Shown here: positions 16,754 to 59,082 of the stretch, piece after piece
How positions within the stretch are numbered: position 1 is the stretch's first letter
How the letters are laid out: each line of letters begins with the position of its first letter
From: Escherichia phage UE-M3
Reading direction: 5' to 3' (one strand)
DNA length: 64,000 nt
Sequence record: PP301342.1
Made by a program: the position numbers and the translations under genes
The notes under the pieces: generated by a model
The model's input: the letters and a program-made list of their open reading frames with translations, nothing else
What the model was told of the DNA's origin: nothing
The model's database searches: none

Positions 16754-16818
16754 CTTACACTGGCTTACTGTAGAGTAAGCTTTCCATATACGATATAAGT
16801 TTGAACAGGAAACATGCT

Positions 16819-25800: not shown

Positions 25801-27171
25801 TATGAGCAATCTATTGACCCTAACATGCTGAAGCACATTGAGGGTGAGAACCATCTCGCTCGTGCAATCGGTGTATGGCGTGGTCGTCAGGTAGAGGAAG
25901 CTAAGGCTCAGCGTTTCAACGATATGCTGATTGAGAACCTGCATAGCATGTATAAAAACGACATTAAAATGTCTGCCTCTAACAAGTCACAGTACGTTAA
26001 CCTTCTTGGTTCTAAACTGGACCCAGTAACTGCTGATGCCCTTAAGCTGATGAACAGTGAAACTCGTCAGAAAGCAGAAAGTCTGTTTGGTCCTGGTGAG
26101 TTGTGGGTACGTCGTGACATGCTGAATGATGCACTGGGCTATCGTGCAGCTTCCGTAGGTGATGCCTGGTCTGGCAATTCTCGTTGGTCACCAGAAACAC
26201 TGGATACCTTCAAGAAAGCTATGTTGGGTGTATTCGGCAACCGTGCTTATAAGTATGTAATGGGTGGTGAGAACCTGGTTCAAAACTTAGTTAAAGAAGC
26301 TAAGACTCTGATTGTAGTTAAATCAGTAGTTGTTCCTGCTGTTAACTTCCTGGCTAACCTTTACCAGATGGTTGGTCGTGGTGTACCTGTTAAGAACATT
26401 GCTAAGAGCATTCCACAGAAGACTGCTGAGATTAACCAGTACCTGAAATCTCGTCTGCGTCAGGTAGATGCAGAAGCAGAATTACGTGCAGCTACTAACC
26501 CGAACCAGATTCGTAAGCTTAAGGCTGAAATTCAGTCCATCACTGATAGTCATAAGCGTATGAGTATCTGGCCTCTGTTAGAAGCTGGTGAGTTTTCTTC
26601 AATTGCAGATGCTGGTATTGGACGAGATGACATCCTGATTACTGAAGGTAAACTTCACGAATACATGGATAAACTGGTTGATAAGTTACCTAAGTCTGTA
26701 CGTAATGCTGGACGTTATGCCCTTATCACCAAGGATACTGCTTTATTCCAGGGTATCCAGAAGACGGTTGAGTACTCTGACTTTATTGCTAAAGCAATCA
26801 TCTATGATGATTTGACTCAGCGTAAAGGTAAGACTCGTGAAGAAGCACTTGGACGTGTAACGGAAGAGTTCATTAACTATGACCGTCTGCCTGGTCGCTT
26901 CCGTGGGTATATGGAAAGTGTTGGTCTTATGTGGTTCTATAACTTTAAGATTCGTTCTGCAAAAATTGCAGTATCCATGATTCGTAACAACCCGGTACAC
27001 GCAGCTATGGCTATGTTGGCTCCAACTCCTACCATGTTTGGTAATGTTGGTTTACCTATTCAGGACAACATCTTCAGTATTGCTGCACAAGGCAATCTCG
27101 GTTACTCCTGGGGCTTCGGTCAGGGACTTCGTGCCCATAACCTTAACCCTTGGCTCAATCTAGCTAACTAA
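16819..27171 (+). CDS. Giant virion RNA polymerase (N4 gp50-like vRNAP)
   Basis: Uninterrupted ~10.4 kb ORF (3450 aa from ATG 16819; track start 16801 is TTG); size and position after capsid/virion genes match N4 vRNAP (~3500 aa as recalled); hairpin promoters for such an enzyme found elsewhere in window. Confidence 0.85.
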   Translation: MSTFDRLAGFADSITNAKQVDVSTATSQKQAAQGQSPFQLTPENAYNLQTGRVGNLGIGAFEPGSLQADFTQASPLEILNKYGNEQGLQILNSRANAADAVRQDLSKQRTNAEAFGDTLSGVGLGVANTLGGIAALGTGLVNDNAGASIASGMDWLNEGVHNLQSDALNATRKVVQNQNQISAQKNQRLYEEDIKNGENDLVASLSRIGRDAFDSVANTLNNGMAATDGLSEGVGSLFTGGPLIRGVSALGKVMVGGDKAVKGITLAAELGSRPAQVALSAGRVAAPAIAIGGMEAGGAYQQTASEIMKMSHQELASKSPVYQQHIADGLSPDEARRQTASETGIIAAGLTAPVAAATGPLVSKFELNPLKVGSLAGAGSNMLRETVEEGIQSGTSQFAQNKAIQGNVDAKRDLLKGVGEQAGLGALYGFGSAGVAQAPGTTVKAVGASAGPALRTTLAGASLVGSALAKAASPITNILVQRGEEVAKRNEQASPVSDATVNAAAQEATAQAEQAQATVQEAVDAMDISPEDKAAATQYAADLTQAMKFDPVELEQANPAIREAVSGSTNRVEAIQKMADLVNTAEDPNVQMEAAIQMYDNIMSMDSFINRDPGALANLEQGSPAANIVDQFSGLMANVQNTPKVLRAFRAIHSMIQEQAEAGKLKATEEANQAQANNIAMAADMSPEVLDADSVNMVLKHASEGKITLGNRQRAALQSAAALLQGAREFDAKAEELGLRPQDIVSKQIKTDESRSNEGQYSALQHAKRIRSAYNSGNFDLASAYLDDFMKFAQHMQNKVGALNEHLISGNADKNKSVHYQALTPSREWVRSRTGLGVNPYDTKSVKFAQQVGLEAKTVADIANALATAYPELNVSHVKVTPLDSRLDKPAAQVVKEFRQGGLDATQSQQTNEPVNQVDETPAPAQETTTTVQPKAKPVVENKTVPVKEASSKAEEVSTTKSETVDATLTNEDTTQKVAETKTEMETVFPVYNNDKTPNQFLKSFTLPEEPKSRTIGSESPLTDIKQALSSTARFEAFTQKENNALTSDVIKRYQDLMGFGETLKTTLSDRLAKFLANKNVGKRFAEGTEANRWVGGKLLNIVEKDGDTFKFNDQLLETAVLAGLQWRLTATQNAAVKDMKDVAAITGVEASLLPEGILAEFENAQTLVEATNSLAQKIESYWGLNRNPNAPLGYTKGIPMAMATEILSSLIEMGEVKESMLDVSEIDPDSNKTVGLYTIEKLDDNDAINKFPTAIEEAVLVEPEEKMYFGDDIPSVAQTQLRNPAVKNTPEQKAALKAEQATEFRVHMPMVNFYEALGRDNILELMGAGTLNPELLNVNTAKSLEGKNLSVSMAYDSLFGVINQLQEQENGLDTPIHYGYNMTRVGRMQMLGKNNPQSSKLVREAILPTFSTIDLSNENSQTFSDFQLGLSQALGIKVHNMSREAMSEKLTKALEGNLKPAVDMMVEFDKSGHLPADAVDILKTSLGGDKSFVALMALMEYARYLNSDDRANFNTPLYVEADGVTNGPINAMVLMTGGKFTSDWIKNTAKGGLFFGKAGKTMNEHRSQDDSVDLYEASTNGLQQALNELRTTYRNNVPVMNQMNHLQKLMDLFIKDFNLNEDGTLDLKRGIAKNPLTITIYGSGARGIAGKMVSAITDTIYERFSDVLQARAADPSISPAMAMFGKEAASEADAQAMLDTFLTSMEALTGNVPVMRKGELSIQQVEGALTGKLDPQKFTVSGNALKNLQENMLHLFVEPMRTGIRNTVGEGLMHSTENLQKATQIQSLVLQDMFQQAVQAKLAEKEKDPTWKKGDFLTQKELNEIQESLSPLAPMIETGSQTFYIAGSENTDVANQVLATNLDDRMRVPMSIYAPSQAGVAGIPFMTIGTGDGMMMQTLSTMKGAPKNTLKIFDGMNIGIDNITDASRKANEAVYTSWQGNPIKNVYESFTKFMKNVDFSKLSDETKQAIAKSALEYDQREGATDDLLRVGAEQIERNLRNIALGVDIRHKVMNQVQTTVDQMAAVGAPYVNNGKISLEGLTVDQQVAKLNELFDAELNKRRDAVRAAKVEPVKEVPAMEQVGRVLKSGVRLLSNTAISKLAKEMSPEQQAVLKEVQKSLAAKDYKVVYGTPSQLDAYAIEKNITRPAPEDIEAAEAGNAYGWTNFEDKTIYLVTPSLETLVHELVHASTFESVLAHYEGTPNEAVQNIEDLMNQFRALDVKDESPAVREAYADALNTINGHLSNGFIEPAMAKAAALNEYMAWGLTNRELISKQKKTTALKTMVQAVYEAIKRLVFGRKKAPANADDMFSGLLFNSSVVMRGQAPTAAVAKDTTLFHNKTYGDNTRLEELGKTFDKLITDYIGSEPVQQVIRKGKFSDAVVNATKVTRDVQAHGFTMNMQEQRLFTNIVAALATEAAINPAALARAQEYYTHVTKNLTVESFMADPDSTNPADRYYAQQKFDTIMGANNIEFDSQGRSSLLPTFIGLAMVSEEVRKVLADIPVMKVDKKSGNTADAMLTNIGTAAMASLNARVAGDTKATNVQEGMDALAQTIMQTSLNAQSFYDSVATPTGNAIDRANQYLVDSIDVLSTRALEGAREVAANTKNPLVKGAAHAAQLIAAIATEKNGAIVAEGVMAAMNQGKVWQPFHDLVNDLTGRTKSNASVYDLIKAVRAQVQADRQQFREHLPTTIASKFSRKLTNDEWKAMHTGMGKTDLAVLRDTMSLGEIRDLLTDQKIVDREVNKLEADLQKQAGRNWPLISRKSKQLAQYMINGTVGNNLLRNATAISRMLGERQAARSTVDVAQLDKLITLYALEAMSKTDREMLSSLAQSEADGIDFATSYLVGQRKDEMAKAKSDMRATLNQYKGYIPGETKQGVNLIVAEDSQFADLIEKSYVRLGTYQGSSANRGPARSYYFAPVQAQAPFSQGILQNVRNTAGGVDLGTGFTMGTMVAGRITDKPSVDRITKALARGERGNEPLLPVYDDKGNVVAYEQSIDPNMLKHIEGENHLARAIGVWRGRQVEEAKAQRFNDMLIENLHSMYKNDIKMSASNKSQYVNLLGSKLDPVTADALKLMNSETRQKAESLFGPGELWVRRDMLNDALGYRAASVGDAWSGNSRWSPETLDTFKKAMLGVFGNRAYKYVMGGENLVQNLVKEAKTLIVVKSVVVPAVNFLANLYQMVGRGVPVKNIAKSIPQKTAEINQYLKSRLRQVDAEAELRAATNPNQIRKLKAEIQSITDSHKRMSIWPLLEAGEFSSIADAGIGRDDILITEGKLHEYMDKLVDKLPKSVRNAGRYALITKDTALFQGIQKTVEYSDFIAKAIIYDDLTQRKGKTREEALGRVTEEFINYDRLPGRFRGYMESVGLMWFYNFKIRSAKIAVSMIRNNPVHAAMAMLAPTPTMFGNVGLPIQDNIFSIAAQGNLGYSWGFGQGLRAHNLNPWLNLAN

Positions 27172-39856: not shown

Positions 39857-39865
39857 AGCTTTACC

Positions 39866-49659: not shown

Positions 49660-50048
49660 TAGTATTTACTACCTCTTCTATACCAAGGGTAATGATGGGT
49701 AGTGCTCTTGCCTTTGAACACATCCTTAGTACGAGGATTCTTTTGTATTTGAGCCAGGTAAAGATGCATTTCGTCGTAACACGGACTAAGCCAGAACTTA
49801 TCTATGATTCGGTCTACCTTAGATTTCAGATGAGGTTCTGGTGGAATATATGAAGAAGTATTAAAAGGTTTTCTAGTAGTCCAATTCTTCATAATAATAT
49901 TTTGCATTACTGCATAAACATCAGGACCAATTCCATTCTCTTCTACTTGATCATGGATAGTTTTACCCAAAGTAAGCATTGCAGTTTGTTCCAGCTTACT
50001 TAAGTCCAGTCCTTGCAGGATAGACTTACCATTTTGTCTGCTTGACAT
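49659..50048 (-). CDS. Hypothetical protein
   Basis: Track start 50150 lies upstream of a terminator hairpin; ATG 50048 chosen downstream of it. Confidence 0.4.
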   Translation of the reverse strand: MSSRQNGKSILQGLDLSKLEQTAMLTLGKTIHDQVEENGIGPDVYAVMQNIIMKNWTTRKPFNTSSYIPPEPHLKSKVDRIIDKFWLSPCYDEMHLYLAQIQKNPRTKDVFKGKSTTHHYPWYRRGSKY

Positions 50049-50061
50049 AAGAGTACCTGTA

Positions 50062-50090
50062 AATAAAAAAGCCCACGGGTTAGGTGGGCT
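50062..50090 (-). terminator. Rho-independent terminator (minus strand)
   Basis: gcccac-gggttag-gtgggc hairpin with aaataaaaaa on + side. Confidence 0.5.
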
Positions 50091-50165
50091 TGGGTTAGGA
50101 GATGGATAAGCAATGAGCTGGAAGTAACTTCCGCAAGCACCACTATGCAATGATGCTTAGGTTAG

Positions 50166-50444
50166 TTACTCTGCTTTACTGCCACCATTGGTTTGAACAA
50201 CAGTTACGTTTGTAACTTGGTTCTGACCTTTGTTGGACAGTGACCAAATCAGTGCTACTACCCAGAAGACTAAAGACCAGCCTAATACAATATTAAGCAC
50301 ACCAATGCCCCACTTGGAGGCATGGCCTCGTGCAAAAGCAATGATAGTAGGGATGAGGTATACAGCTAATACAAACAACATAACAAGGATTGCTGCTAAA
50401 GATTCCATGATGGTTCCTATGTGAGGTTGAGTTAGTTTCTTCAC
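50166..50444 (-). CDS. Small inner-membrane protein resembling superinfection-immunity (Imm-like) family
   Basis: 92 aa; motif YLIPTIIAFARGHASKWGIGVLNIVLGWSLVFWVVALIWSL. Confidence 0.45.
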   Translation of the reverse strand: MKKLTQPHIGTIMESLAAILVMLFVLAVYLIPTIIAFARGHASKWGIGVLNIVLGWSLVFWVVALIWSLSNKGQNQVTNVTVVQTNGGSKAE

Positions 50445-50481
50445 AAATAGCCCAACTATGCTGGGCTATTTAGGCAGCTAC

Positions 50482-50691
50482 TTACTCAGCATCTTTGCTT
50501 GCAGGAGCAAGAGCTTTCTTCAGGTAATTGCGTACTGAACGATAGGTTTCTTTAGTATCCATAGCACTATCATTTACGAAAGTGATACGTGCACAATCAG
50601 ACAGCGGAATCTGCTCCACTGCAATTACATTTGCAGCATTAATGGTTACACGTACATCTGAGGTTGCATGAGTTACTTGAAATACTGACAT
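50482..50691 (-). CDS. Small hypothetical protein
   Basis: 69-aa ORF. Confidence 0.4.
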   Translation of the reverse strand: MSVFQVTHATSDVRVTINAANVIAVEQIPLSDCARITFVNDSAMDTKETYRSVRNYLKKALAPASKDAE

Positions 50692-50721
50692 GTTGTTTCC
50701 TTAATTAAGCCGGATAGCCTT

Positions 50722-51228
50722 TTATTTTGAAGGTCTAGCAGCTACTGGTTTGTTTTCCTGATTCTGATACTTACCATTGTAATTAGCAGGTTCTTGAACC
50801 AGATGAAATAATACTTGAGCTATCCCAGCACCAGCCGGGATATGCAATTTCTTACGACCGTGATAGACCAGTTCGAGGGTAAGATACCCTTTCCATCCTG
50901 GTTCTATTACGGTATTGAACACTGATAATGCACGTCTTGCCCATGTAGACTTATCGTGAACGATTGCTACACAGGACGGGGACATGTTGAACTTCTCAAT
51001 TGCTGAGGCCAAGGCGAACTTACCGAGATGGCGTGATACTTGATTTCCATCAACGACTTTCACCATTGGAATCAGCCCAAATAAGCGATAGAAGGTAATA
51101 TCTTGTTTGATACGAATATCATAACCAGCTTCACCTAATCCATAGCTTACACCATGCTCTGATACCTTATGGTCTGGGACATCCAGCAACTGAGATGAAC
51201 GGTATAGAGAATTACCATTAACAACCAT
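50722..51228 (-). CDS. dCTP deaminase / dUTPase-fold protein
   Basis: 168 aa; IEPGWKGYLTLELVYHG matches dCTP deaminase (V/I)DPGY.G.LTLEL motif. Confidence 0.65.
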   Translation of the reverse strand: MVVNGNSLYRSSQLLDVPDHKVSEHGVSYGLGEAGYDIRIKQDITFYRLFGLIPMVKVVDGNQVSRHLGKFALASAIEKFNMSPSCVAIVHDKSTWARRALSVFNTVIEPGWKGYLTLELVYHGRKKLHIPAGAGIAQVLFHLVQEPANYNGKYQNQENKPVAARPSK

Positions 51229-52403
51229 TATTTCATTCCTTTAGGGATATGAACTACCTCCCCAAAAGGTACGGTAGCATTGGGATTATTCAGAACACAC
51301 CAGATGATAGGAATATCAAATGGTAATTCTTCCATTGGACGAACATACATATCGGAGAATATGATTGCAGCGGTTGGTTTATTCTTAATAATCCACTCGC
51401 GTACTGGTTCCAGGTTTGTACCACCACGACCGGTAATCTTAATCTCTTCAAAAGTATCTTCTTCAGTGATGTCTATCTCTTCTTGGATAATATCGTCGAA
51501 GGTAATTAAGGACATCTTCTTAGGATTGAACTGGCTCTTAACGTAGGCAACCTCTGAGTTAAAACGCAGAGAGTCAGCACTACTAATAGAACCAGATACA
51601 TCCTCAAAGTAGGCTAAGTGTCGTAAGCGTCCTTCATCATCTTCCATGGAAGGTAGATAGATGTCAGTAAAACGACGGTTAGGTCTGGCCCACGTATAAT
51701 GAGTATCGTCAATGTCGGTAAAGAAGTTCATGAGGACTTCCTGCCATGGAACCACTGGTTTAAGGAATTGGGTAATAACCTCTTCCATACGACCAGCACC
51801 CTTACCGGGCATCTGTCCACCAGCCATTTTCTGGCTCTGCATTGCTCGTACTACGTTGTTGACGACAGCACCCTGGGACTGCCCCGAAGTGGGGGATTTC
51901 ATGTCGCCAGCAAGACCTGCTCCAGCACCCCCTGACGGCTTCTGCCTTTTCTGAGGGTTCTTCATCAGGTCATCGTAGATGTCTTCTTCGACCCATCCTT
52001 TATATTGAGGGTCTTTGCAAATACCTTTATCAATGCCAGTGAACTTATAACCATCTTCTTCTAACTGAAGGTTAATGAAGTGGTCACACGCCTGGTTCCA
52101 GATTTCTGGGTCACGGCTTCCACGACGGATGCCATGCAGATATGCCACATGCCAAAGTTCATGCATTAACACTGTTTCTCTGGCATCTGGACACATCCAG
52201 ATAAAGAAATCTGGATTGAAGTGAAGTTCTATCCCATCAGTACATGCAGTGGGACAATTCTCACGTTTCCATGAGAACTTAAGACTACATAGTAATGAAC
52301 CAAAGAACGCAGCACTGCGTCCGAGAAATGCGTTGGCCTGTATTCTATCGTATTCCCTCATTAACTGTTCATCAGTGAGGTTATGTGGTGGTATGTTATT
52401 CAT
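51228..52403 (-). CDS. vWA-domain protein with N-terminal HExxH metallopeptidase-like domain (DUF2201-like)
   Basis: 391 aa; HELWHVAYLH motif; C-terminal vWA-like SGSISS...GRGGTNL...IIFSDMY; partner of adjacent MoxR-like ATPase. Confidence 0.55.
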   Translation of the reverse strand: MNNIPPHNLTDEQLMREYDRIQANAFLGRSAAFFGSLLCSLKFSWKRENCPTACTDGIELHFNPDFFIWMCPDARETVLMHELWHVAYLHGIRRGSRDPEIWNQACDHFINLQLEEDGYKFTGIDKGICKDPQYKGWVEEDIYDDLMKNPQKRQKPSGGAGAGLAGDMKSPTSGQSQGAVVNNVVRAMQSQKMAGGQMPGKGAGRMEEVITQFLKPVVPWQEVLMNFFTDIDDTHYTWARPNRRFTDIYLPSMEDDEGRLRHLAYFEDVSGSISSADSLRFNSEVAYVKSQFNPKKMSLITFDDIIQEEIDITEEDTFEEIKITGRGGTNLEPVREWIIKNKPTAAIIFSDMYVRPMEELPFDIPIIWCVLNNPNATVPFGEVVHIPKGMK

Positions 52404-52879
52404 TAAGATGCTCCATGATTTATATGGTAACCCAATAATTTTTCTGCTTCCTTTCTGGCTGTAATGGCCTCTTGTTTACTGTTAAACTTTCCTAAGTAAA
52501 TTTGTTTACCATTATCATTTATATGGGCAGCCCAGATTTTATCTCGGGTGTGCCAGTAAACTCCTGTCACACCTGATGTATTTGTAATTCTCTTGGTTTG
52601 ATTTTTGCAATTAATCGAGTTTGTTACTAAACGGAAATTGCTTGGGTAATTATTTAATCTATTATGGTCAATATGGTCTACCTGCATACCGTCAGGAATT
52701 GGTCCAATCTCCATTTCATAAATTATGCGGTGAACTAAATGCATTTTCTTGTTACATTTAACACGCAAATACCCACTGTTATCCAAACAACCGGCAATGG
52801 CACCTGCTTTTACGCAGCCCCTGCTTACTTTCCAGTAGAGGGAACCATTGCTATAAACAAATAGTTCATGCCAATTCAT
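52403..52879 (-). CDS. HNH homing endonuclease with AP2-like DNA-binding domain
   Basis: 158 aa; VDHIDHNRLNNYPSNFRLVTNSINCKNQ HNH motif; SGVTGVYWHTRDKIWAAHI AP2-like; inserted between AAA ATPase and vWA genes with 1-nt overlap. Confidence 0.75.
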   Translation of the reverse strand: MNWHELFVYSNGSLYWKVSRGCVKAGAIAGCLDNSGYLRVKCNKKMHLVHRIIYEMEIGPIPDGMQVDHIDHNRLNNYPSNFRLVTNSINCKNQTKRITNTSGVTGVYWHTRDKIWAAHINDNGKQIYLGKFNSKQEAITARKEAEKLLGYHINHGAS

Positions 52880-52883
52880 TATT

Positions 52884-53936
52884 TTATCCGTGAATGTAAC
52901 GAGAGATATTAGCAGCAGCCTTACGCCATTCAGGTGTAGCCTGAAGTTCTGGCAATGCTCTGCCTACTGTACGGAAGTACAGAATCTTATGGGTGAACGT
53001 TTTAAAGCGTTCAATGTACTGAAGAACATCAGAGAAGTTTTCTTCAGTAGTTTTGTTAGCCAGGTGGTTAACAGTAGCCCAACACAGGTTGTTATCTTCC
53101 GGTAGTGCACAGCCCAGAGGGTCTTTGACTACTTTCTCAATCGTAATCATACGATTGTATACCTGAGTGAATTGAACAAACTCTGTAGCCTTACCAGCAG
53201 TAACATGTCCTGCGTAGTAGATAGAATCTTCATCTGGCAGAGCACCTTCAGGACGGTTCTTGAGGTCTTTGTTAACAAAGTCCCAGGTGCGTGGGCAACA
53301 GAACGTTTTGTTCTTATGGGCTGGGTCGAAGTCATGCAGATAACCTGGGTTAGCATGTAAGAATGCAACCAGACGTTCATCCCATTCTTGTGGAATCATT
53401 ACATCTTCAACAAAGATGTCGAAGTTAAGTTCCATTTCGAAGTGAACCACGCGAGACTGCATTGCAGTGCCCAGTGGGTTAACAATGGCACGGTCAGTAG
53501 CTTTGTTACCAGCACATATAATCATCACATTAGGATGGAGTTTTTTCTGACCAGTCATACGGTCCAGAATCAGTTTGTATGCAGCAGCTACTACTTCTTT
53601 TCTGGCTGAGTTGAACTCATCAAGGAACAGGAGCCAACCATTATATCCTTCCGGTATCTCATCCCCCTCAATAGGGAATAAGTCAGCGAATGGGATAAAC
53701 TCTGCACGGTCACCATTACGGAATGGTAGACCAGACAAATCCTCTGGGGCAGAAGTAGACAGACGATGGTCTATCAGTTTCATACCAAATTCTTCTGCAA
53801 CAGAGCGAATAATTGCAGATTTACCCATTCCCGGTGATGAAGTCAGGAACGGTACGTTACCTGCTTGCAGGGCACGGATAATAAAGTTACGGGCCTGACG
53901 TGTATTACATATGGTCAGTGAGTCAATGCTCGCCAT
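52884..53936 (-). CDS. AAA+ ATPase, MoxR-like (AAA_5)
   Basis: 350 aa; Walker A SSPGMGKSAI; Walker B LLFLDEFN; arginine finger region. Confidence 0.7.
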   Translation of the reverse strand: MASIDSLTICNTRQARNFIIRALQAGNVPFLTSSPGMGKSAIIRSVAEEFGMKLIDHRLSTSAPEDLSGLPFRNGDRAEFIPFADLFPIEGDEIPEGYNGWLLFLDEFNSARKEVVAAAYKLILDRMTGQKKLHPNVMIICAGNKATDRAIVNPLGTAMQSRVVHFEMELNFDIFVEDVMIPQEWDERLVAFLHANPGYLHDFDPAHKNKTFCCPRTWDFVNKDLKNRPEGALPDEDSIYYAGHVTAGKATEFVQFTQVYNRMITIEKVVKDPLGCALPEDNNLCWATVNHLANKTTEENFSDVLQYIERFKTFTHKILYFRTVGRALPELQATPEWRKAAANISRYIHG

Positions 53937-53970
53937 TTACTTACTCTCCTAAAGTTAATGGAATTACTAA

Positions 53971-54297
53971 TTAAGATTTAATACATGGGTAGGCTGTATC
54001 AATTGCCATCAGAACCATGTCTGATGGTACTTTTACTGCATTAACCTTTCTGTCATACAGAATAATAGTGGCTACTTTGTCAAAGACATTTCCTAACTTC
54101 AAACTATCTGGTACGCAGTTCTTACCTGCTTCTACACCCATAGTAACCATGCCCATAAAGTAACCCTGGTTCACAAAGTTTGCATTATTGGCTTTGTAGT
54201 CAGCAGCAGCGTCTAACAGAGTTTCACGGCTGGATGCTTGAGCATTGAATGACAGAACTGATAAAGCTACTACAGCAACAGCAATTAAAGTTTTCAT
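53971..54297 (-). CDS. Small secreted/periplasmic protein with signal peptide
   Basis: 108 aa; N-terminal MKTLIAVAVVALSVLSFNAQA-S signal-peptide-like with AXA site. Confidence 0.5.
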   Translation of the reverse strand: MKTLIAVAVVALSVLSFNAQASSRETLLDAAADYKANNANFVNQGYFMGMVTMGVEAGKNCVPDSLKLGNVFDKVATIILYDRKVNAVKVPSDMVLMAIDTAYPCIKS

Positions 54298-54483
54298 TTA
54301 GTTACCTTTTAACTCGTTGAGTTGAAGTACTCCAGTAGGGGTTAATGACCACCCAAGACCAGCATTGAACTGCACTAAGCCCAGTTTCTTAAGAGACTGT
54401 GCGGTTTTATTATTGCGGTTGCTGGTGGCAGAACCACCTTGAACCATACGAAGGAAGATTGCTTGGGACTGGGTTAATTTCAC
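54298..54483 (-). CDS. Small hypothetical protein
   Basis: 61-aa ORF, abutting neighbours. Confidence 0.4.
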   Translation of the reverse strand: MKLTQSQAIFLRMVQGGSATSNRNNKTAQSLKKLGLVQFNAGLGWSLTPTGVLQLNELKGN

Positions 54484-54740
54484 TCATCTTCTCCTTCATC
54501 TGGGAGTGGTGATAAATCTACACATAAATGCTCAAAGCGTTTTTCTAAGACAGCAATTCTCTTTTGATAAAATGACAGCAGTTCAGGAAGTATTCTTGTA
54601 CGAGCTTGCGGTCCTAAATCCGTACCATTGAATGATACTTTCACCATATGTGGTGACTTCTTCAAACTAGCTAATTGCTGTCGGTTGTCGTTGTATTCTT
54701 CGTACAGTTTCTCAACCAAACGTAGATTGTGGATATTCAT
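54480..54740 (-). CDS. Small hypothetical protein
   Basis: 86-aa ORF with 4-nt overlaps typical of translational coupling. Confidence 0.4.
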   Translation of the reverse strand: MNIHNLRLVEKLYEEYNDNRQQLASLKKSPHMVKVSFNGTDLGPQARTRILPELLSFYQKRIAVLEKRFEHLCVDLSPLPDEGEDE

Positions 54741-54925
54741 TTTTTCTCCGGTACGAACTGCATTACACAGTTTTGATTACGAGGGATATTCAATTCACAT
54801 TCATGCTTGAGGGTTTGTGTTACAGAATTTGGAGTAGAACCAAAGTAGGTATTAGAAATAGCTACAAATCCTGCACCTAATAAACCGCCTAGTAAGAATG
54901 AGAAAAATGCAATCTCTTTATACAT
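54737..54925 (-). CDS. Small membrane protein
   Basis: 62 aa; N-terminal hydrophobic FFSFLLGGLLGAGFVAI. Confidence 0.4.
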   Translation of the reverse strand: MYKEIAFFSFLLGGLLGAGFVAISNTYFGSTPNSVTQTLKHECELNIPRNQNCVMQFVPEKK

Positions 54926-54949
54926 TTCCTGGCTCCAGAATGTTTAAGT

Positions 54950-54980
54950 CAAAAAAAGACCTCCCTTCATCTGGGAGGTC
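54950..54980 (-). terminator. Rho-independent terminator (minus strand)
   Basis: gacctccc-ttcatct-gggaggtc stem with A7 on + side. Confidence 0.55.
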
Positions 54981-55030
54981 AAGCTTGGGAGTTTTATATC
55001 AGGGTTTACAACCCCAAATAAAGGCTACCT

Positions 55031-55864
55031 TTATTCTACAACAGTAATAGCGATGGTTACATCGACCTTACCGTTGGTAACTACTACAGAAGTAGCTTCA
55101 CCAGCAGCCACTGGTTTAACCGTCAATACGTTACCGGCAATGGTAGCCGTAGCACGGGCAGAATCTGGGGTAGTCTTAATAGACAAAGTACCAGCAGATG
55201 AACCAACAGGCATAGCAGCAATGGTTACAGTCTTACCGGCAGCAGTATCATCAGCAACAGACAGAGCCAGTGAATCAGGAGTAGCTACCAGTGAGCTTGC
55301 TTCATAGTAGCCTACTGCCAGCAACGACGTATCTTCTACAGTGGTTCCATTGGCATCAGTAACAATCACTTTATAAGTACCAGCAGAAGCAGCGGTTACG
55401 TCATTAAGGGTTAATGTTGCAGTAGCAGCAGATGGGTTAGTACTAGAGCTAATATCAGTGAATGCTGCACCAGCAGTATCAGCTTTGAACTGCCATTTAT
55501 AAGTAAATGGTGCTTTACCGCCTGCTACATCAACATGCCAGTTAATATCTTCGCCTTCGATAGCAGAGATTACACGAGGCAGTTTAGTAGCAACAGTCAG
55601 TCGTGGAGTAGCTTTCATGTCAATAGAGATGGCTTGCATATCCACGATGTTGTTAGGCCAGAAGCCTGCTTCAGCAGGGTTTTTAGCAGAACGTTTATAC
55701 AGCAGATCACGTACACCGTGAAAGATAACTAAACTATCCGGGTAAGTGGCATCCGGATGCACAAAAGTACCTACCTCTACGGAACCACCCGGGATAGAAC
55801 CCCCTGCATCCAGTACAGTTGCAACATTGGTGGTTTTGTTAAAACCTACTTTTAAAGTTGGCAT
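55031..55864 (-). CDS. Ig-like domain protein, probable capsid decoration protein (N4 gp17-like by position)
   Basis: Track ORF to 55993; ATG 55864 preceded by GAGGA; Thr/Ala/Val-rich beta-strand repeats incl. FTYKWQFK...AGTYKVIVTD Ig-like. Confidence 0.55.
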   Translation of the reverse strand: MPTLKVGFNKTTNVATVLDAGGSIPGGSVEVGTFVHPDATYPDSLVIFHGVRDLLYKRSAKNPAEAGFWPNNIVDMQAISIDMKATPRLTVATKLPRVISAIEGEDINWHVDVAGGKAPFTYKWQFKADTAGAAFTDISSSTNPSAATATLTLNDVTAASAGTYKVIVTDANGTTVEDTSLLAVGYYEASSLVATPDSLALSVADDTAAGKTVTIAAMPVGSSAGTLSIKTTPDSARATATIAGNVLTVKPVAAGEATSVVVTNGKVDVTIAITVVE

Positions 55865-55911
55865 ATGAATTTCCTCATAAGTAAATAGCAGGATTAGTAT
55901 ACATGACATGT

Positions 55912-55940
55912 AAAAAAATAAACCCTCCGTTAAGAGGGTT
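55912..55940 (-). terminator. Rho-independent terminator (minus strand)
   Basis: aaccctc-cgttaa-gagggtt stem with A-rich run on + side. Confidence 0.5.
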
Positions 55941-56136
55941 AGTTGTTTACACAGTAGATAGCAAAAGCTATCCATCCTGCCATTACAAAGCATCCTAGTG
56001 AGTATGCTCCATAGTAGCAGTAAGCAAACTTAGACTTGTGGGCACGAACTATCGTAGCCAGAATCAGTACAGATAAAACTATCAGTATTAGCTGAGAGAT
56101 TACTTCAAAATTGATAAGCATAGTTGCTACCTCCAA
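55939..56136 (-). CDS. Small membrane protein
   Basis: 65 aa, two hydrophobic segments. Confidence 0.4.
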   Translation of the reverse strand: MEVATMLINFEVISQLILIVLSVLILATIVRAHKSKFAYCYYGAYSLGCFVMAGWIAFAIYCVNN

Positions 56137-56179
56137 GCAAAAAATAAAGCCCCACTCCCGAAGGAATGAGGCTAGTTTA

Positions 56180-57397
56180 TTAACTTAATGCATAATCTGT
56201 TTCTAGAATGTCTTGCCAGAGGCTGTCATCCAGCTTACCAGCAGAGAACTCTTGTCCCAGTACTTGAGACAGAATGAAGCCCAGTAAGTCACTCTTAGCA
56301 ATGTCAGACAGAATCTGATTGTACTGACGACGCAGGTCATTACCATAGTTAGGGTGGCAACGGAAGCAATCATGTACAGTCATTACAGGGAATGGTTTCT
56401 TAGGCATAGTGTCGATCATATCTGCTACTACTTGACGGTCTACCAATGCAATAGTATTCGGGTCAAGGAAGTCTAGGATAGACAGCGACAGGAATCCTGA
56501 CCTTTCATAATGATTCCAGATTTCCATAGTCTTCTCTTGGTTCCCCTCAATAACGGGGTATTCACTTGGCCCGATATCGCACAGTTCCCGTACATAGGCA
56601 ACCAGTTTAGGGTCGAAGTTACAACGACGTAGCATCTCACGTACTACCATCCCATCAATAGAGTGAGTGATGTTAGCAGAGAGCATACGGGTCTTCTCTT
56701 CAGTACCCTGAACCATACGAGTGATGTCAAATGGTTTACCCAAGAAGTTAACAGTCTGTACTTCAAGAACCATGACTTTAATGACAGCATGGAAGTTGTC
56801 AGGGAGTACCCATATGTAACGGTTAGCATCCGGGTTACCACATTGCAGTAAGAACTTGTTAAGTGCCCAAGGACCACTTGCAACTGTTTCCATTACATTT
56901 TCAAAAGTCTTGAGACGGATACCTTCCCCGAATACTTCTTTAGGTTTGGCTTCTGAACCGTAGAATGCAGTCATAACTGCCTGCTTGGTATCACTACGTT
57001 TAATACGGGATGCTTCACCAAGGATGTCCAGCATCTTGTGATATATAACTGTATAAGCATCACGTCGTAATGGCTTACCATTCTCTCCCATGTAATTAAC
57101 TACGTTACACAGTTCAGCAGCAGAGCGGTCACCAGTCAGGCAGGCCAGTAACTGCAAGCCTGATGATGTAGCATCCAGGGCTACGGCATATCCGATAGGC
57201 TTACCAGCTTTCATATCTTTCCATGCGTTTACACCAGCATAGAACAGTGCAGATTCCTCAGCTTCATCTACCAGATTAAGCAAGTTAGCTTCATTCTCAT
57301 CGAACCAAGCAATACGCTCATCCCAGGTCTTTTTATCCAGACCATAGTTATTGGCGATGTCTACTTTCAGGTATTCTTTAGCGGTTAACAGTTGCAT
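56180..57397 (-). CDS. Phage RNA polymerase II catalytic subunit (T7-like single-subunit RNAP palm/fingers)
   Basis: Track start 57478 overlaps HNH gene; ATG 57397 has AAGGA Shine-Dalgarno giving 405 aa (N4 p7 recalled ~404 aa); motifs VALDATSSGLQ, KQAVMTAFYGS, TVHDCF. Confidence 0.75.
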   Translation of the reverse strand: MQLLTAKEYLKVDIANNYGLDKKTWDERIAWFDENEANLLNLVDEAEESALFYAGVNAWKDMKAGKPIGYAVALDATSSGLQLLACLTGDRSAAELCNVVNYMGENGKPLRRDAYTVIYHKMLDILGEASRIKRSDTKQAVMTAFYGSEAKPKEVFGEGIRLKTFENVMETVASGPWALNKFLLQCGNPDANRYIWVLPDNFHAVIKVMVLEVQTVNFLGKPFDITRMVQGTEEKTRMLSANITHSIDGMVVREMLRRCNFDPKLVAYVRELCDIGPSEYPVIEGNQEKTMEIWNHYERSGFLSLSILDFLDPNTIALVDRQVVADMIDTMPKKPFPVMTVHDCFRCHPNYGNDLRRQYNQILSDIAKSDLLGFILSQVLGQEFSAGKLDDSLWQDILETDYALS

Positions 57398-57443
57398 TTT
57401 ATGTTCCTTAGCGTCTGAGCCATTTGGCTCGCATAGTGGGTAG

Positions 57444-57950
57444 TTATTGACCGTGACGGTTAGTATAGCCAGCACCATTCTGGTTCAAGGCTTCTAACAT
57501 GTCGGCTCGTGCATCACATGCTTGTTGGAATGCGAACTCGTAGCCGTATTTCTTAACTGAGAATACTTTACACCTCTGTTTCTTTGTGATGTTGTCCGTA
57601 CATGTAGCACGCCAGAATAACCCCTTTGGTGAATCCCATAGAGATACACCAGTTACCCCAGATTTATTGTCTGAACGTTTAGTAGAGTTACGCAGGTTGA
57701 CTACAATGGGAACACATCGCAAGTTACACCAGCGGCAGTCCGTTCTGATACCGTTGATGTGGTCAATTGTATAACCAGCAGGGATAGATCTATGCTTCAT
57801 TTCCCACAACCAACGGTGAAGGTATAAGATTTTATTTCCACGAGAGATGCGAATGTACCCAGTGGCACTATTCGCTGCCTCCGGTGGATGGGCTACAGCA
57901 AGTTCATCAACTGACTTGTTCCAGTAGCCCATTGGCATACGCTCTTTCAT
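57444..57950 (-). CDS. HNH homing endonuclease with AP2-like domain, inserted between the two RNAP II subunit genes
   Basis: 168 aa; IDHINGIRTDCRWCNLR HNH motif and SGVTGVSLWDSPKGLFWRA AP2-like; start overlaps upstream stop. Confidence 0.75.
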   Translation of the reverse strand: MKERMPMGYWNKSVDELAVAHPPEAANSATGYIRISRGNKILYLHRWLWEMKHRSIPAGYTIDHINGIRTDCRWCNLRCVPIVVNLRNSTKRSDNKSGVTGVSLWDSPKGLFWRATCTDNITKKQRCKVFSVKKYGYEFAFQQACDARADMLEALNQNGAGYTNRHGQ

Positions 57951-58768
57951 TAATCCTCATTAACAAGTTCTTTTTCTGCAAATTCTAGGACTGCTTTATT
58001 CCAAGAAGTCCCTTGGTAGTTACAGTGATAGCCCTGAGCGTAAGTACGCCCACGTTTGTCATATTTGTGACCCAGTGAGAAGTTATTACCTTCTTTGGTC
58101 ACTAACTCCATTACTTCCTTAGCAGTACGGCTGTACTTCTCAAAGGCTTTAACACGTTTCTCATATTCCTGACGGGTTTCACCCTCTTTGGGCTTATCCA
58201 TATTAGGACGAGAGTCTTTTACATAGTTAGCAACGTCCCAGTTGATACTTAGACGCTGATTATTCATACGGTTGATGTGATCAAGACAGACATCCATCTC
58301 ATGATGGTTCTTCTTGAGGATGATACTTCCCCTGCTCTCGTAGTAACCTGTATCACGGTTACACAGAACAGGCTTAGGAGCACTTACGATAGGTAATGGA
58401 TACTGGAATGCTTCCAGTTCCATCTGAACATCTTCACTAATCTCGTAGATAACACCGAACTTGTCGATGGTAGGGTCATAGTTGAAGCAGTCATTCTCTG
58501 CCATCTTATACAGACAGTCAGCGATGTACTGAGCATCATCTGAATGGCTCATAAGAGAGCCAATCATAGTCTGAAGGTCAGCACGTTTATGTAGGGCAAT
58601 CTGCACCATTGCATCAATGAGCAGCTTATAATCAATTTCCAAATAGGCAGCGAATGCCTTAAAGTCAATTTCTTCGGAGTCCTCAAATTCCTTCCTCATG
58701 CGAGGGAGTAATTGATTTTTGTTGAAAAGAATTTCGAGTTGCTTCTGATGTTCAATGGATGAGTACAT
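57950..58768 (-). CDS. Phage RNA polymerase II small subunit (N-terminal-domain-like)
   Basis: 272 aa (N4 p4 recalled ~269 aa); AGGAGA Shine-Dalgarno; directly downstream of hairpin promoter. Confidence 0.55.
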   Translation of the reverse strand: MYSSIEHQKQLEILFNKNQLLPRMRKEFEDSEEIDFKAFAAYLEIDYKLLIDAMVQIALHKRADLQTMIGSLMSHSDDAQYIADCLYKMAENDCFNYDPTIDKFGVIYEISEDVQMELEAFQYPLPIVSAPKPVLCNRDTGYYESRGSIILKKNHHEMDVCLDHINRMNNQRLSINWDVANYVKDSRPNMDKPKEGETRQEYEKRVKAFEKYSRTAKEVMELVTKEGNNFSLGHKYDKRGRTYAQGYHCNYQGTSWNKAVLEFAEKELVNED

Positions 58769-58790
58769 CGCTTATTCTCCTAAATGTGAT

Positions 58791-58816
58791 TAATAACCAA
58801 AAGCTGCGGAGCAGCT
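58791..58816 (-). promoter_or_regulatory. Hairpin promoter of N4 virion-RNAP type (P3-like), driving the RNAP II operon
   Basis: agctgc-GGA-gcagct 6-bp stem / 3-nt GGA loop preceded by aaccaaa; 34 nt upstream of gene start 58768. Confidence 0.6.
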
Positions 58817-58821
58817 ATTAC

Positions 58822-59082
58822 CTAACGTTTAGTCCAAAAGGTAATACGAATACTGTTCTCTTGACCAAGGTAGTCAATACGTACATATAAACCATTACCA
58901 CTAAACTCGTTATTTTTCTTCTGGTAAGGCCATACCAGACTACGCATAGGTATTTTAATTAAACCAGATATGTGACCTAGTTTAGTACGATCCTTTAGTT
59001 CGTTTTGTAATGCACAATAGATATCATGCCGTGTAAGTGCTCTGGCTCTGACTTGAGCAGTCCACAGTTCTTCATAAGTCAT
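58822..59082 (-). CDS. Small early hypothetical protein
   Basis: 86-aa ORF. Confidence 0.45.
   Translation of the reverse strand: MTYEELWTAQVRARALTRHDIYCALQNELKDRTKLGHISGLIKIPMRSLVWPYQKKNNEFSGNGLYVRIDYLGQENSIRITFWTKR

Follow-up and report, generated by a model that had tools for sequence, protein, structure and literature searches.

The window, i.e. the whole stretch of 64,000 nucleotides analysed here, contains a small gene for an HNH-AP2 endonuclease between the gene of an AAA ATPase and that of a vWA-like protein, and the locus raises the question of how this gene came to be there and whether it still moves. UE-S5a is a Gamaleyavirus, i.e. an N4-like Escherichia phage, and its HNH gene at the AAA|vWA junction is UES5a059. 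We consider, with a probability of about 0.85, that UES5a059 is a homing endonuclease gene of the HNH_3 + AP2 type, functional and free-standing ('intronless'), its activity being predicted from the features described below.

All features described here are located on the minus strand. The HNH gene (52403..52879) is an ORF of 158 aa with an ATG start and is recognized by Pfam, by PHROG 99 (E=2.4e-63) and by the annotation of the record, where it already bears the label "HNH homing endonuclease". The ATPase gene ends with TAA at 52886..52884, followed by the 4-nt spacer AATA (52880..52883) and the ATG of the HNH gene at 52879. At the other end, the HNH stop codon TAA (52405..52403) and the ATG of the vWA-like gene have base 52403 in common, which gives TAATG with an overlap of 1 nt. 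The position between the two genes and the 1-nt overlap, both given in the first-pass annotation, were confirmed when ORF, stop and start codons and domains were checked. In a junction alignment of 20 genomes, in which the spacer was also located, the vWA ATG of gene-free genomes occupies exactly the position of the HNH ATG in carriers. The 3' end of the HNH gene (52403..52414) provides a replacement Shine-Dalgarno sequence together with the TAATG stop/start; GGAG is found at 52414..52411, 7 nt ahead of the vWA-like ATG, and the new ribosome-binding site of the vWA-like gene thus comes from the HNH gene. The motif AATCATGGAGCAYCYTAATGAA at this end is kept in all carrier alleles, divergent ones included.

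Both flanking genes are complete and intact in UE-S5a. The downstream gene (51228..52403) encodes a homologue of N4 gp25, as also annotated in G7C, which consists of a metallopeptidase-like DUF2201_N part, a putative metallopeptidase domain (Pfam, E=3.3e-56), and a VWA-like DUF2201 part (E=1.7e-34). The upstream gene (52884..53936) encodes an AAA+ ATPase homologous to N4 gp24 and assigned to PHROG 1297. Pfam AAA is matched with E=2e-6 and 28.7 bits, AAA_5 stays below threshold, and the sole PDB match is the AAA module of midasin (E=9.6e-5). The pair had been described as a MoxR-like ATPase with its vWA partner; the VWA-like partner is borne out, and the MoxR label fits loosely only, the ATPase matching generic AAA in Pfam but not MoxR/AAA_3. 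NCBIfam gave zero matches for the ATPase, the vWA protein and both HNH proteins of the genome.

The equivalent of UES5a059 in phage G7C is gp24.1, which shows 94% amino acid identity, and the proteins of UE-S5b and UE-M6 are 100% identical; all are located at the same junction. In comparison with the G7C allele dN/dS is 0.095. Purifying selection acts on the gene, and on sequence evidence it is a conserved gene, a chance ORF being excluded. The GC content is 36.9%, versus 44-45% in the flanks, and is of foreign composition. The 476-nt insert is wholly filled by the ORF, with no non-coding intron-like sequence, and the gene possesses its own start and stop, between genes and outside any intron or intein, as is typical of free-standing (intronless) elements. 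A group I intron-encoded gene is ruled out, since the insertion is intergenic and no ribozyme was detected by Rfam, which gave no match in 50000..59000 at gathering thresholds. A promoter and terminator scan of 51000..54400 delivered fewer promoter-like sites than shuffled sequences and none associated with the HNH gene. RNA folding at the starts of both the HNH and the vWA gene and at one empty junction gave z-scores of 0.05-0.64, which leaves a regulatory hairpin unsupported.

The protein consists of three parts. The N-terminal beta-hairpin region (aa 1-47; 52739..52879) corresponds by homology, according to profile and model, to the DNA-binding N-terminus of I-HmuI, with profile positions 2-100 aligned to I-HmuI residues 1-105 (E=1.8e-9); in the AlphaFold model, which is confident (pLDDT 91.6), its strands comprise residues 7-10, 13-16, 38-42 and 45-48. 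The HNH (beta-beta-alpha-metal) nuclease core (aa 48-90; 52610..52738) matches Pfam HNH_3 (PF13392) with E=2.6e-18 and 65.8 bits, the cutoff being 24.8, and is modelled as strand 65-69, strand 82-86 and helix 87-92. Among 58 homologues H69 is invariant and D68, N81 and N90 are conserved in at least 90%, so that the catalytic His and the metal-binding Asp/Asn motif of HNH_3 / I-HmuI-like enzymes are present. The AP2-type DNA-binding domain (aa 102-149; 52433..52576), a three-stranded sheet with a helix, reaches 31.2 bits in Pfam (E=2.8e-7), slightly under the gathering score of 33.3. A 9-sequence profile searched against the PDB found, besides I-HmuI, the AP2 domains of WRI1 (4.8e-5), TEM1 (0.003) and PfAP2, and AP2 is matched in 8 of 9 aligned relatives. 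In Foldseek residues 107-149 of the model superpose on the AP2 domains of AtERF1/TEM1 with an rmsd of 1.1-1.6 A and a probability of 1.00, and the predicted C-terminal AP2 fold is confirmed despite the sub-threshold Pfam score. The C-terminal AP2 domain that characterizes the HNH-AP2 family is thus recovered by profile and by fold, and missed by the Pfam sequence threshold alone.

The closest solved structure is I-HmuI of Bacillus phage SPO1 (PDB 1U3E; single-sequence E=1.3e-5), which is also the best PDB fold match of the model (Foldseek E=1.6e-4). Both proteins share the N-terminal beta-hairpin region and the HNH core, and both possess an 'HNN'-type motif without the last His (D74, H75 and N96 in I-HmuI, aligned with D68, H69 and N90 in UES5a059). 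I-HmuI is encoded in a group I intron and ends in a helix-turn-helix, whereas UES5a059 is free-standing and has AP2 instead. I-HmuI nicks a single strand only. Proteins with HNH and AP2 are a recognised family of homing endonucleases (PMC10448857), and the combination of an N-terminal HNH with a C-terminal AP2 is known from phages, cyanobacteria and protists (Magnani et al. 2004, as cited in PMC10448857); UES5a059 has the same domain order. It differs from the 'IPA-HNH' proteins of ICP1, in which the HNH part is too divergent for Pfam HNH_3 (PMC10448857), in being a canonical HNH_3 member. Among free-standing homing endonucleases UES5a059 is a textbook case, with the 5' end of the vWA gene as its predicted target; a new kind of element is not revealed, the gene being already annotated and its family known.

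The AAA|vWA junction was surveyed in 42 related phages, which are non-independent samples; 9 carry the gene and 33 have a clean, contiguous empty site. Insertion boundaries are identical in all carriers. On a tree of the flanking genes the carriers are polyphyletic, with UE-S5a as sister to the gene-free phage PGN829.1, whereas a tree of nt 1-72 of the vWA gene splits carriers cleanly from non-carriers. The gene is therefore polymorphic at one exact site and discordant with the tree of its flanks, as homing endonuclease genes are. Since part of the lineage lacks the insertion, the gene is mobile or has been so recently, and mobility between genomes is strongly supported by these sequence comparisons. 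Gene frameshifts in phage Bp4, whose record looks error-prone throughout the region, were left uninterpreted.

The carriers are further distinguished by a recoded tract with which the vWA-like gene begins (nt 1-72; 52332..52403), delimited by fixed differences, pS and linkage, which is the predicted homing target or immunity tract. In the 42 phages linkage is perfect, the vWA gene being recoded over its initial ~50-72 nt in all carriers and in zero empty genomes, and metagenomic carriers have the same linked tract. Fixed differences between carriers and empty genomes occur solely at vWA nt 7, 9, 17, 21, 29, 39, 42, 46 and 48 (nt 7-48 = 52356..52397), with none in the 650 nt upstream and none in about 1650 nt further downstream. 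Within vWA nt 1-60 pS is about 1.0-1.25, versus 0.04-0.36 beyond; essentially all synonymous sites and a few amino acids are altered. A contig from a distant genus shows 90% identity to the empty-site version (73% over the gene as a whole), which makes this stretch the most conserved of 19 60-nt windows. A donor of the recoded tract from a nearby genus was rejected, as three more distant relatives (L013, L014 and L025) have the empty-site version, with 79-89% identity to it versus 61-69% to the recoded one.

The comparison of UE-S5a with PGN829.1 shows the gene and the tract as one recombinant patch of ~570 nt (52332..52899), defined by identity profile and difference list. The two phages are about 100% identical on both sides, the exceptions being the gene and vWA nt 1-72; the difference list contains the 476-nt gap and clustered substitutions, with 0 substitutions over the following 516 nt on the downstream side and 3 over about 930 nt on the upstream side. 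The association of the fixed differences with this patch is the pattern of co-conversion. The tract of PGN829.1 matches that of the other gene-free phages closest to it by flanks. This speaks for acquisition by the UE-S5a lineage, the direction (gain versus replacement loss) being given by parsimony alone. The exact donor is absent from the databases; the HNH gene is nearest to G7C (92% at the nucleotide level) and the tract to Moonfish (93%).

The same data bear on the possibility that the insertion is old, was inherited vertically and has repeatedly been lost by decay or deletion, the present copy being an inert passenger. The alleles at the site are very divergent: between the types of UE-S5a, Mimir124 and PD38 synonymous sites are saturated, whereas dS of the flanks is 0.3-0.44, so the association of the alleles with the site is probably old; in addition, the Moonfish copy carries a frameshifting deletion. 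Deletion, however, would leave the recoded tract behind in empty genomes; no such genome was found among the 33, and loss by simple deletion is therefore not seen. The carriers are moreover scattered on the flanks tree, UE-S5a and PGN829.1 differ by one discrete patch, and strong purifying selection with an intact catalytic motif does not fit an inert copy. We consider repeated loss improbable.

For a functional homing endonuclease the following course is proposed. In a mixed infection with a gene-free relative the enzyme would recognise the highly conserved 5' end of the vWA gene of the empty allele, with a target roughly inside the first 50 nt of the gene, just downstream of the insertion point, and would nick or cut this allele. 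Repair by recombination off the carrier genome would then copy the 476-nt gene together with ~50-72 nt of the downstream tract into the recipient. Carrier genomes would be protected because their vWA tract is recoded. The cost to the phage would be low, as the gene starts at the old position of the vWA ATG and its 3' end rebuilds GGAG and TAATG, so that the vWA gene would stay translationally coupled. Cleavage activity, the exact recognition site, a nick as opposed to a double-strand break, and immunity conferred by the tract are what we infer in this scheme; a literature search yielded no cleavage biochemistry for the UES5a059 protein or close relatives. The recoded tract could instead be a hitch-hiking co-conversion tract from the donor and not the determinant of immunity, and insertion alone, by altering the ATG-proximal junction, might destroy a site that spans it.

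Co-conversion and intronless homing are established for the free-standing endonucleases of T4 (PMC2988022). The T4 Seg proteins and MobE resemble UES5a059 in being encoded between conserved genes and in being present in some related phages and absent from others; flanking sequence is co-converted with their genes, and they cleave in the adjacent conserved gene (PMC2988022, PMC2790892). Their nuclease and DNA-binding families are different ones, Seg being GIY-YIG enzymes and the Mob proteins having HNH with other C-terminal regions. Cleavage sites of the T4 free-standing enzymes are offset from the insertion, while those of intron-encoded enzymes are within 25 bp (PMC2988022); unlike the offset T4 sites, the tract linked to UES5a059 extends no further than about 50-72 nt from where the gene is inserted.

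A further-reaching but doubtful possibility is that the AAA|vWA junction is a long-lived homing site at which anciently diverged HNH-AP2 alleles coexist, the recoded leader of ~50 nt being an evolved immunity cassette. Three allele types occur at the junction, namely UE-S5a/G7C, Mimir124 and PD38/Moonfish. Immunity tracts specific for each allele were considered and rejected, since tract subtypes cross HNH types: by tract, UE-S5a and Moonfish form one group, with HNH alleles of types A and B, respectively, and G7C (type A) and PD38 (type B) form another. If true, the junction would be a natural and testable system for the co-evolution of endonucleases and resistant targets, might include competition of allelic nucleases with one another, for which I-HmuI and I-HmuII are the described example, and would make the AAA/vWA module a hot spot of invasion at several sites.

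Domestication, in which the endonuclease would have acquired a function for the phage such as exclusion of competitors or markers, assistance to AAA/vWA or DNA processing, is very unlikely. [quoted passage not shown] However, the gene is dispensable, since 33 of the 42 close relatives lack it and have intact AAA and vWA genes, no functional tie of the gene to its neighbours was found, and competitive exclusion would be a by-product of homing and not an alternative to it.

A second HNH-AP2 gene at the junction of another gene pair, as noted in the first-pass annotation, does exist: HNH1 (57444..57950; 168 aa, HNH_3 + AP2) lies at the RNAP1/RNAP2 junction and is missing from the sibling isolate UE-S5b. 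Its protein shares 34% identity over 138 aa with UES5a059 (HNH2 in this comparison), with about 51% at the nucleotide level. The flanking DNA of the two genes is no more similar than shuffled sequences (the score of the real sequences was equalled or exceeded by 154, 16 and 28 of 300 shuffles), and no target motif common to both flanks was found above chance. At the same junction other Gamaleyaviruses have alleles with 94/81/58% identity to HNH2, genes of unrelated siphophages reach about 50%, and all alleles of the HNH2 lineage with at least 58% identity are located at the vWA junction. HNH1 has 78% identity to a gene adjoining RNAP1 of phage Jura and 56% to one adjoining RNAP1 of a Burkholderia phage. 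The claim that the genes are paralogues that moved recently within this genome, one copied from the other, is scarcely credible: they share the two-domain architecture, PHROG 99 and a position at conserved gene-pair junctions where each starts at or overlaps the stop of the upstream gene, but their mutual identity is below that to relatives elsewhere (50-94% for HNH2, 47-78% for HNH1), their flanks are unrelated, their GC contents differ (36.9% vs 45.6%), and each lineage keeps to its own site, HNH1 to RNAP1 (also in the Burkholderia phage) and HNH2 to the vWA junction. As judged from these comparisons, HNH1 and HNH2 represent two independent lineages within the large PHROG 99 family, each specific for its own site. 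The mobility seen in the data is homing, between genomes at a fixed site, and not a transposition from junction to junction. This replaces the idea of an intragenomic duplication by that of several independent site-specific HNH-AP2 lineages in N4-like coliphages.

The entries of G7C gp24.1, UE-S5a, UE-S5b and UE-M6 represent the same gene at the same junction and are annotations only. A published analysis of target, linked tract or distribution of gp24.1-type genes was not found, and a population study of G7C mentions module swapping related to homing endonucleases in general terms only (bioRxiv 10.1101/542787). The present analysis provides a concrete prediction for the gp24.1-type enzyme, i.e. 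a proposed target of ~50 nt in the initial part of the vWA-like gene. UE-S5a is a phage of uropathogenic E. coli (UPEC) under evaluation, and because HNH elements mark recombination boundaries in such therapeutic candidates they are relevant when these genomes are compared or engineered.

Two observations concern the neighbouring genes. In PHROG 1314 as well as several RefSeq records the DUF2201 vWA-like protein bears the label 'HNH endonuclease', a misannotation that has been passed on. Some relatives, among them U1G and NAN33P5, contain HNH-bearing inserts within the AAA gene itself; Rfam gave nothing at gathering thresholds in four relatives with interrupted AAA genes, the sole match among them being a weak one to Intron_gpI in the insert of U1G (23.7 bits, E=0.0013).

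From comparative sequence analysis HNH2, a 158-aa HNH-AP2 reading frame at 52403..52879 on the minus strand, appears to be a mobile homing endonuclease gene that is polymorphic in its lineage, and not a recent intragenomic paralogue. All computationally testable hallmarks of such a gene were found, namely a nuclease motif, a DNA-binding domain, site-specific polymorphism, tree discordance and a linked tract; HNH2 is free-standing, with neither intron nor intein. The 3.6-kb region around it is 100% identical to the G7C-like, N4-like coliphage Escherichia phage UE-S5a (PP175015.1; Schitoviridae, Enquatrovirinae, Gamaleyavirus). The UE-S5a record labels the gene 'HNH homing endonuclease' (UES5a059), and G7C, the type phage, carries the equivalent gene as gp24.1 ('putative HNH homing endonuclease'). 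HNH2 is already annotated and represents a well-known kind of element; the present analysis adds a specific prediction of the target site and, in the cassette of gene and presumed immunity tract, a clean example from nature.

As the first-pass annotation noted, HNH2 lies between an AAA ATPase gene (52884..53936, minus strand) and a vWA-like gene (51228..52403, minus strand), and overlaps the vWA start by 1 nt. The ATPase stop is followed by 4 nt (AATA) and the HNH2 start, and base 52403 is common to the HNH2 TAA stop and the vWA ATG. The neighbours had been described as a MoxR-like ATPase/vWA pair, which holds for the VWA-like partner, whose only Pfam domains are DUF2201_N (putative metallopeptidase, 3.3e-56) and DUF2201 (VWA-like, 1.7e-34). 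The ATPase is a generic AAA+ protein (Pfam AAA, 28.7 bits; AAA_5 below cutoff) with the midasin AAA module as sole PDB match (E=9.6e-5); it matched no MoxR-specific model and no NCBIfam model, and the label 'MoxR-like' is therefore plausible but unproven. In PHROG 1314 and several records (among them PGN829.1 gp13, PBM-3 and Mimir124; L002, L005, L028) the DUF2201 protein itself is labelled 'HNH endonuclease', apparently a misannotation that has spread from record to record and may have arisen from the neighbouring HNH gene. Directly upstream of the ATPase a 108-aa protein (53971..54297, minus strand) is annotated 'tai4', which is odd in a lytic phage; its Pfam match to Rap1a (type VI secretion amidase immunity protein) is weak, at 19 bits against a cutoff of 27.7.

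Residues 48-90 of HNH2 match Pfam HNH_3 (E=2.6e-18) and residues 102-138 match AP2 (E=2.8e-7), the latter at 31.2 bits, a little short of the 33.3 gathering score. Three checks of the AP2 assignment were made. A profile built from nine relatives matched, besides I-HmuI (1.8e-9, profile positions 2-100), the AP2 domains of WRI1 (4.8e-5), TEM1 (0.003) and Plasmodium AP2 (0.027) at positions ~99-154; Pfam AP2 was matched by 8 of the 9 relatives; and in a confident AlphaFold model (58 homologues, mean pLDDT 91.6) the C-terminal sheet and helix superimpose on the AP2 domains of TEM1 and AtERF1 at 1.1-1.6 A. The top PDB fold match of the model, and the nearest structure, is I-HmuI (E=1.6e-4), which has its own C-terminal region where HNH2 has the AP2 domain. 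D68, H69 and N90 align with the I-HmuI active-site residues D74, H75 and N96; among the 58 homologues H69 never varies, and conservation is at least 90% at D68, N81 and N90. The domain matches, the active-site alignment and the conserved residues mark the product as a canonical HNH_3-AP2 endonuclease, a member of a recognised homing endonuclease family (PMC10448857).

Probes for the empty (PhAPEC7) and the filled junction (UE-S5a) were run on a set of 50,697 phage records. In 33 distinct Gamaleyavirus-type phages the AAA|vWA junction is contiguous and empty, and nine carriers have an HNH gene there (UE-S5a, UE-S5b, UE-M6, G7C, Mimir124, Moonfish, Bp4, Uz-1 and PD38), with further carriers among metagenomic contigs. 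The insertion is polymorphic in the lineage and the gene mobile, and to this extent the first-pass interpretation is right. The ATPase stop and the vWA ATG are 4 or 7 nt apart in empty genomes, and in carriers the HNH ATG occupies the exact position of that ATG; the inserted element therefore takes over the former vWA translation start. Both genes start ATGAA(C/T), and every insert terminates in ...AATCATGGAGCAYCYTAATGAA. The HNH2 3' end supplies vWA with a new Shine-Dalgarno sequence (GGAG, 52414..52411, 7 nt upstream) in addition to the stop/start overlap.

The insertion is linked to a recoded tract at the 5' end of the vWA gene. When 6 carriers were aligned with 13 empty genomes, the two classes lacked a common allele only at vWA nt 7, 9, 17, 21, 29, 39, 42, 46 and 48; neither 650 nt upstream nor the rest of the downstream sequence (~1650 nt) contained a fixed difference. 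Between carriers and empty genomes essentially all synonymous sites of vWA nt 1-60 differ (pS about 1.0-1.25; for example CGT to AGG or AGA) and pN is also elevated (0.16-0.21); past nt 60 pS is 0.04-0.36 and pN 0.01-0.03. In the survey of 33 empty genomes and nine carriers the ancestral tract never occurred together with the gene, nor the recoded tract without it; the absence of the second combination argues against loss of the gene by simple deletion.

In a neighbour-joining tree of the flanks the carriers are scattered, with UE-S5a as sister to the gene-free PGN829.1, whereas the tree of vWA nt 1-72 splits cleanly into carriers and non-carriers. On either side of gene and tract UE-S5a matches PGN829.1 at about 100% identity (0 differences in 516 nt past the tract, 3 in ~930 nt upstream), and the two are separated by a patch at 52332..52899, comprising the 476-nt gene and vWA nt 1-72. 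The PGN829.1 tract is of the type found in PBM-3, ECBP1-like L008 and L016, gene-free phages from the same region of the flanks tree, and parsimony therefore favours a gain of HNH2 in the UE-S5a lineage.

The empty-site version of the tract is ancestral and unusually conserved: its first 60 nt are 90% identical to a distant-genus contig (73% over the whole gene), the best of 19 windows, while the recoded tract is only 61-69% identical to every non-carrier. Conserved stretches are typical targets of homing endonucleases. On these grounds the site that the enzyme recognises or cleaves is predicted to lie within about nt 1-50 of vWA in empty genomes, and the recoded tract would be the immunity determinant that shields carriers.

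Between UE-S5a and G7C, HNH2 shows a dS of 0.37 (flanks 0.33-0.38) and a dN/dS of 0.095, which indicates that the protein is maintained by selection. Its GC content of 36.9%, against 44-45% in the flanks, suggests foreign ancestry. Synonymous sites are saturated between the UE-S5a allele and those of Mimir124 and PD38 (pS 0.76-0.82) despite a dS of only 0.3-0.44 in the flanking genes; several old allelic lineages thus share this one site. Tract subtypes and HNH allele types are discordant (UE-S5a groups with Moonfish, G7C with PD38), which suggests that the alleles share one target specificity and that immunity is not allele-specific. The copy in the Shigella phage Moonfish (L007 2170-2621) has a ~30-nt deletion and a frameshift inside the AP2 domain, with the downstream vWA gene and linked recoded tract both intact; it is either decaying, as expected in the decay phase of homing elements, or a sequencing error. 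Searches for promoters, terminators, RNA structures and Rfam families linked to the element were all negative. Proteins detected by LC-MS/MS in the UE-S5a paper include an 'HNH endonuclease', which one not being specified (PMC11927229).

The first-pass annotation had also taken HNH2 for a paralogue of HNH1, the other HNH_3-AP2 gene (57444..57950, minus strand, between RNAP1 and RNAP2), recently mobile within this genome. Pairwise comparison does not support this: the proteins share 34% identity over 138 residues and the genes ~51%, and the flanking DNA shows no likeness beyond shuffled sequence. The nearest relatives of HNH2 are same-junction alleles in other Gamaleyaviruses (G7C 94%, Mimir124 81%, PD38/Bp4/Moonfish 57-60%), followed at ~50% identity by genes at unrelated loci in unrelated siphophages (Nonagvirus, Seuratvirus, Klebsiella phages); those of HNH1 adjoin RNAP1 (phage Jura 78%, Burkholderia phage HN03 56%). 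HNH1 and HNH2 are therefore two independent, site-faithful lineages.

HNH2 relatives also occur at other junctions in N4-like phages. One of 50% identity was seen in a metagenomic Gamaleyavirus, where it separates the DNA polymerase from a 176-aa gene; the corresponding junction in the window (39857..39865) is empty. One of 56% precedes RNAP1 in a contig that is more distant and has an HNH1-like gene after RNAP1; coordinates listed for these copies are L045 2501-2977 and L044 1080-1556. The ATPase gene is intact in the window, but relatives carry HNH-containing inserts within it at aa 67/68 (IMG contig L016), aa 106 (U1G, L004 2852-3790; NAN33P5, L027) and aa 216/217 (NAN33P5; metagenome L039 1276-2092, a NUMOD4+HNH_3 ORF), which makes the AAA/vWA module a hot spot for invasion at several sites. 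Rfam reported nothing at gathering thresholds in the interrupted genes; the best that the U1G insert gave was a weak match to a group I intron (23.7 bits, E=0.0013).

The RNAP1|RNAP2 junction (57398..58024; L032, L033, L034) is a cassette site. It holds a 168-aa HNH gene in UE-S5a and UE-M6, a different 168-aa HNH gene in Mimir124, a 193-aa gene annotated 'endonuclease VII' in PGN829.1, and a 79-aa ORF in place of the HNH gene in the sibling isolate UE-S5b, where the replaced block (window 57410..58024) takes in the last ~75 nt of RNAP1. The longest RNAP2 ORF (56180..57478, minus strand, 432 aa) would overlap HNH1 by 35 nt; with the GenBank start at 57397 (405 aa) the two genes are 46 nt apart, and the gap contains AAGGA, a plausible ribosome-binding site. 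A 3456-aa ORF at 16801..27171 (plus strand) has the size expected of the giant virion RNA polymerase typical of N4-like phages, consistent with the taxonomic assignment.
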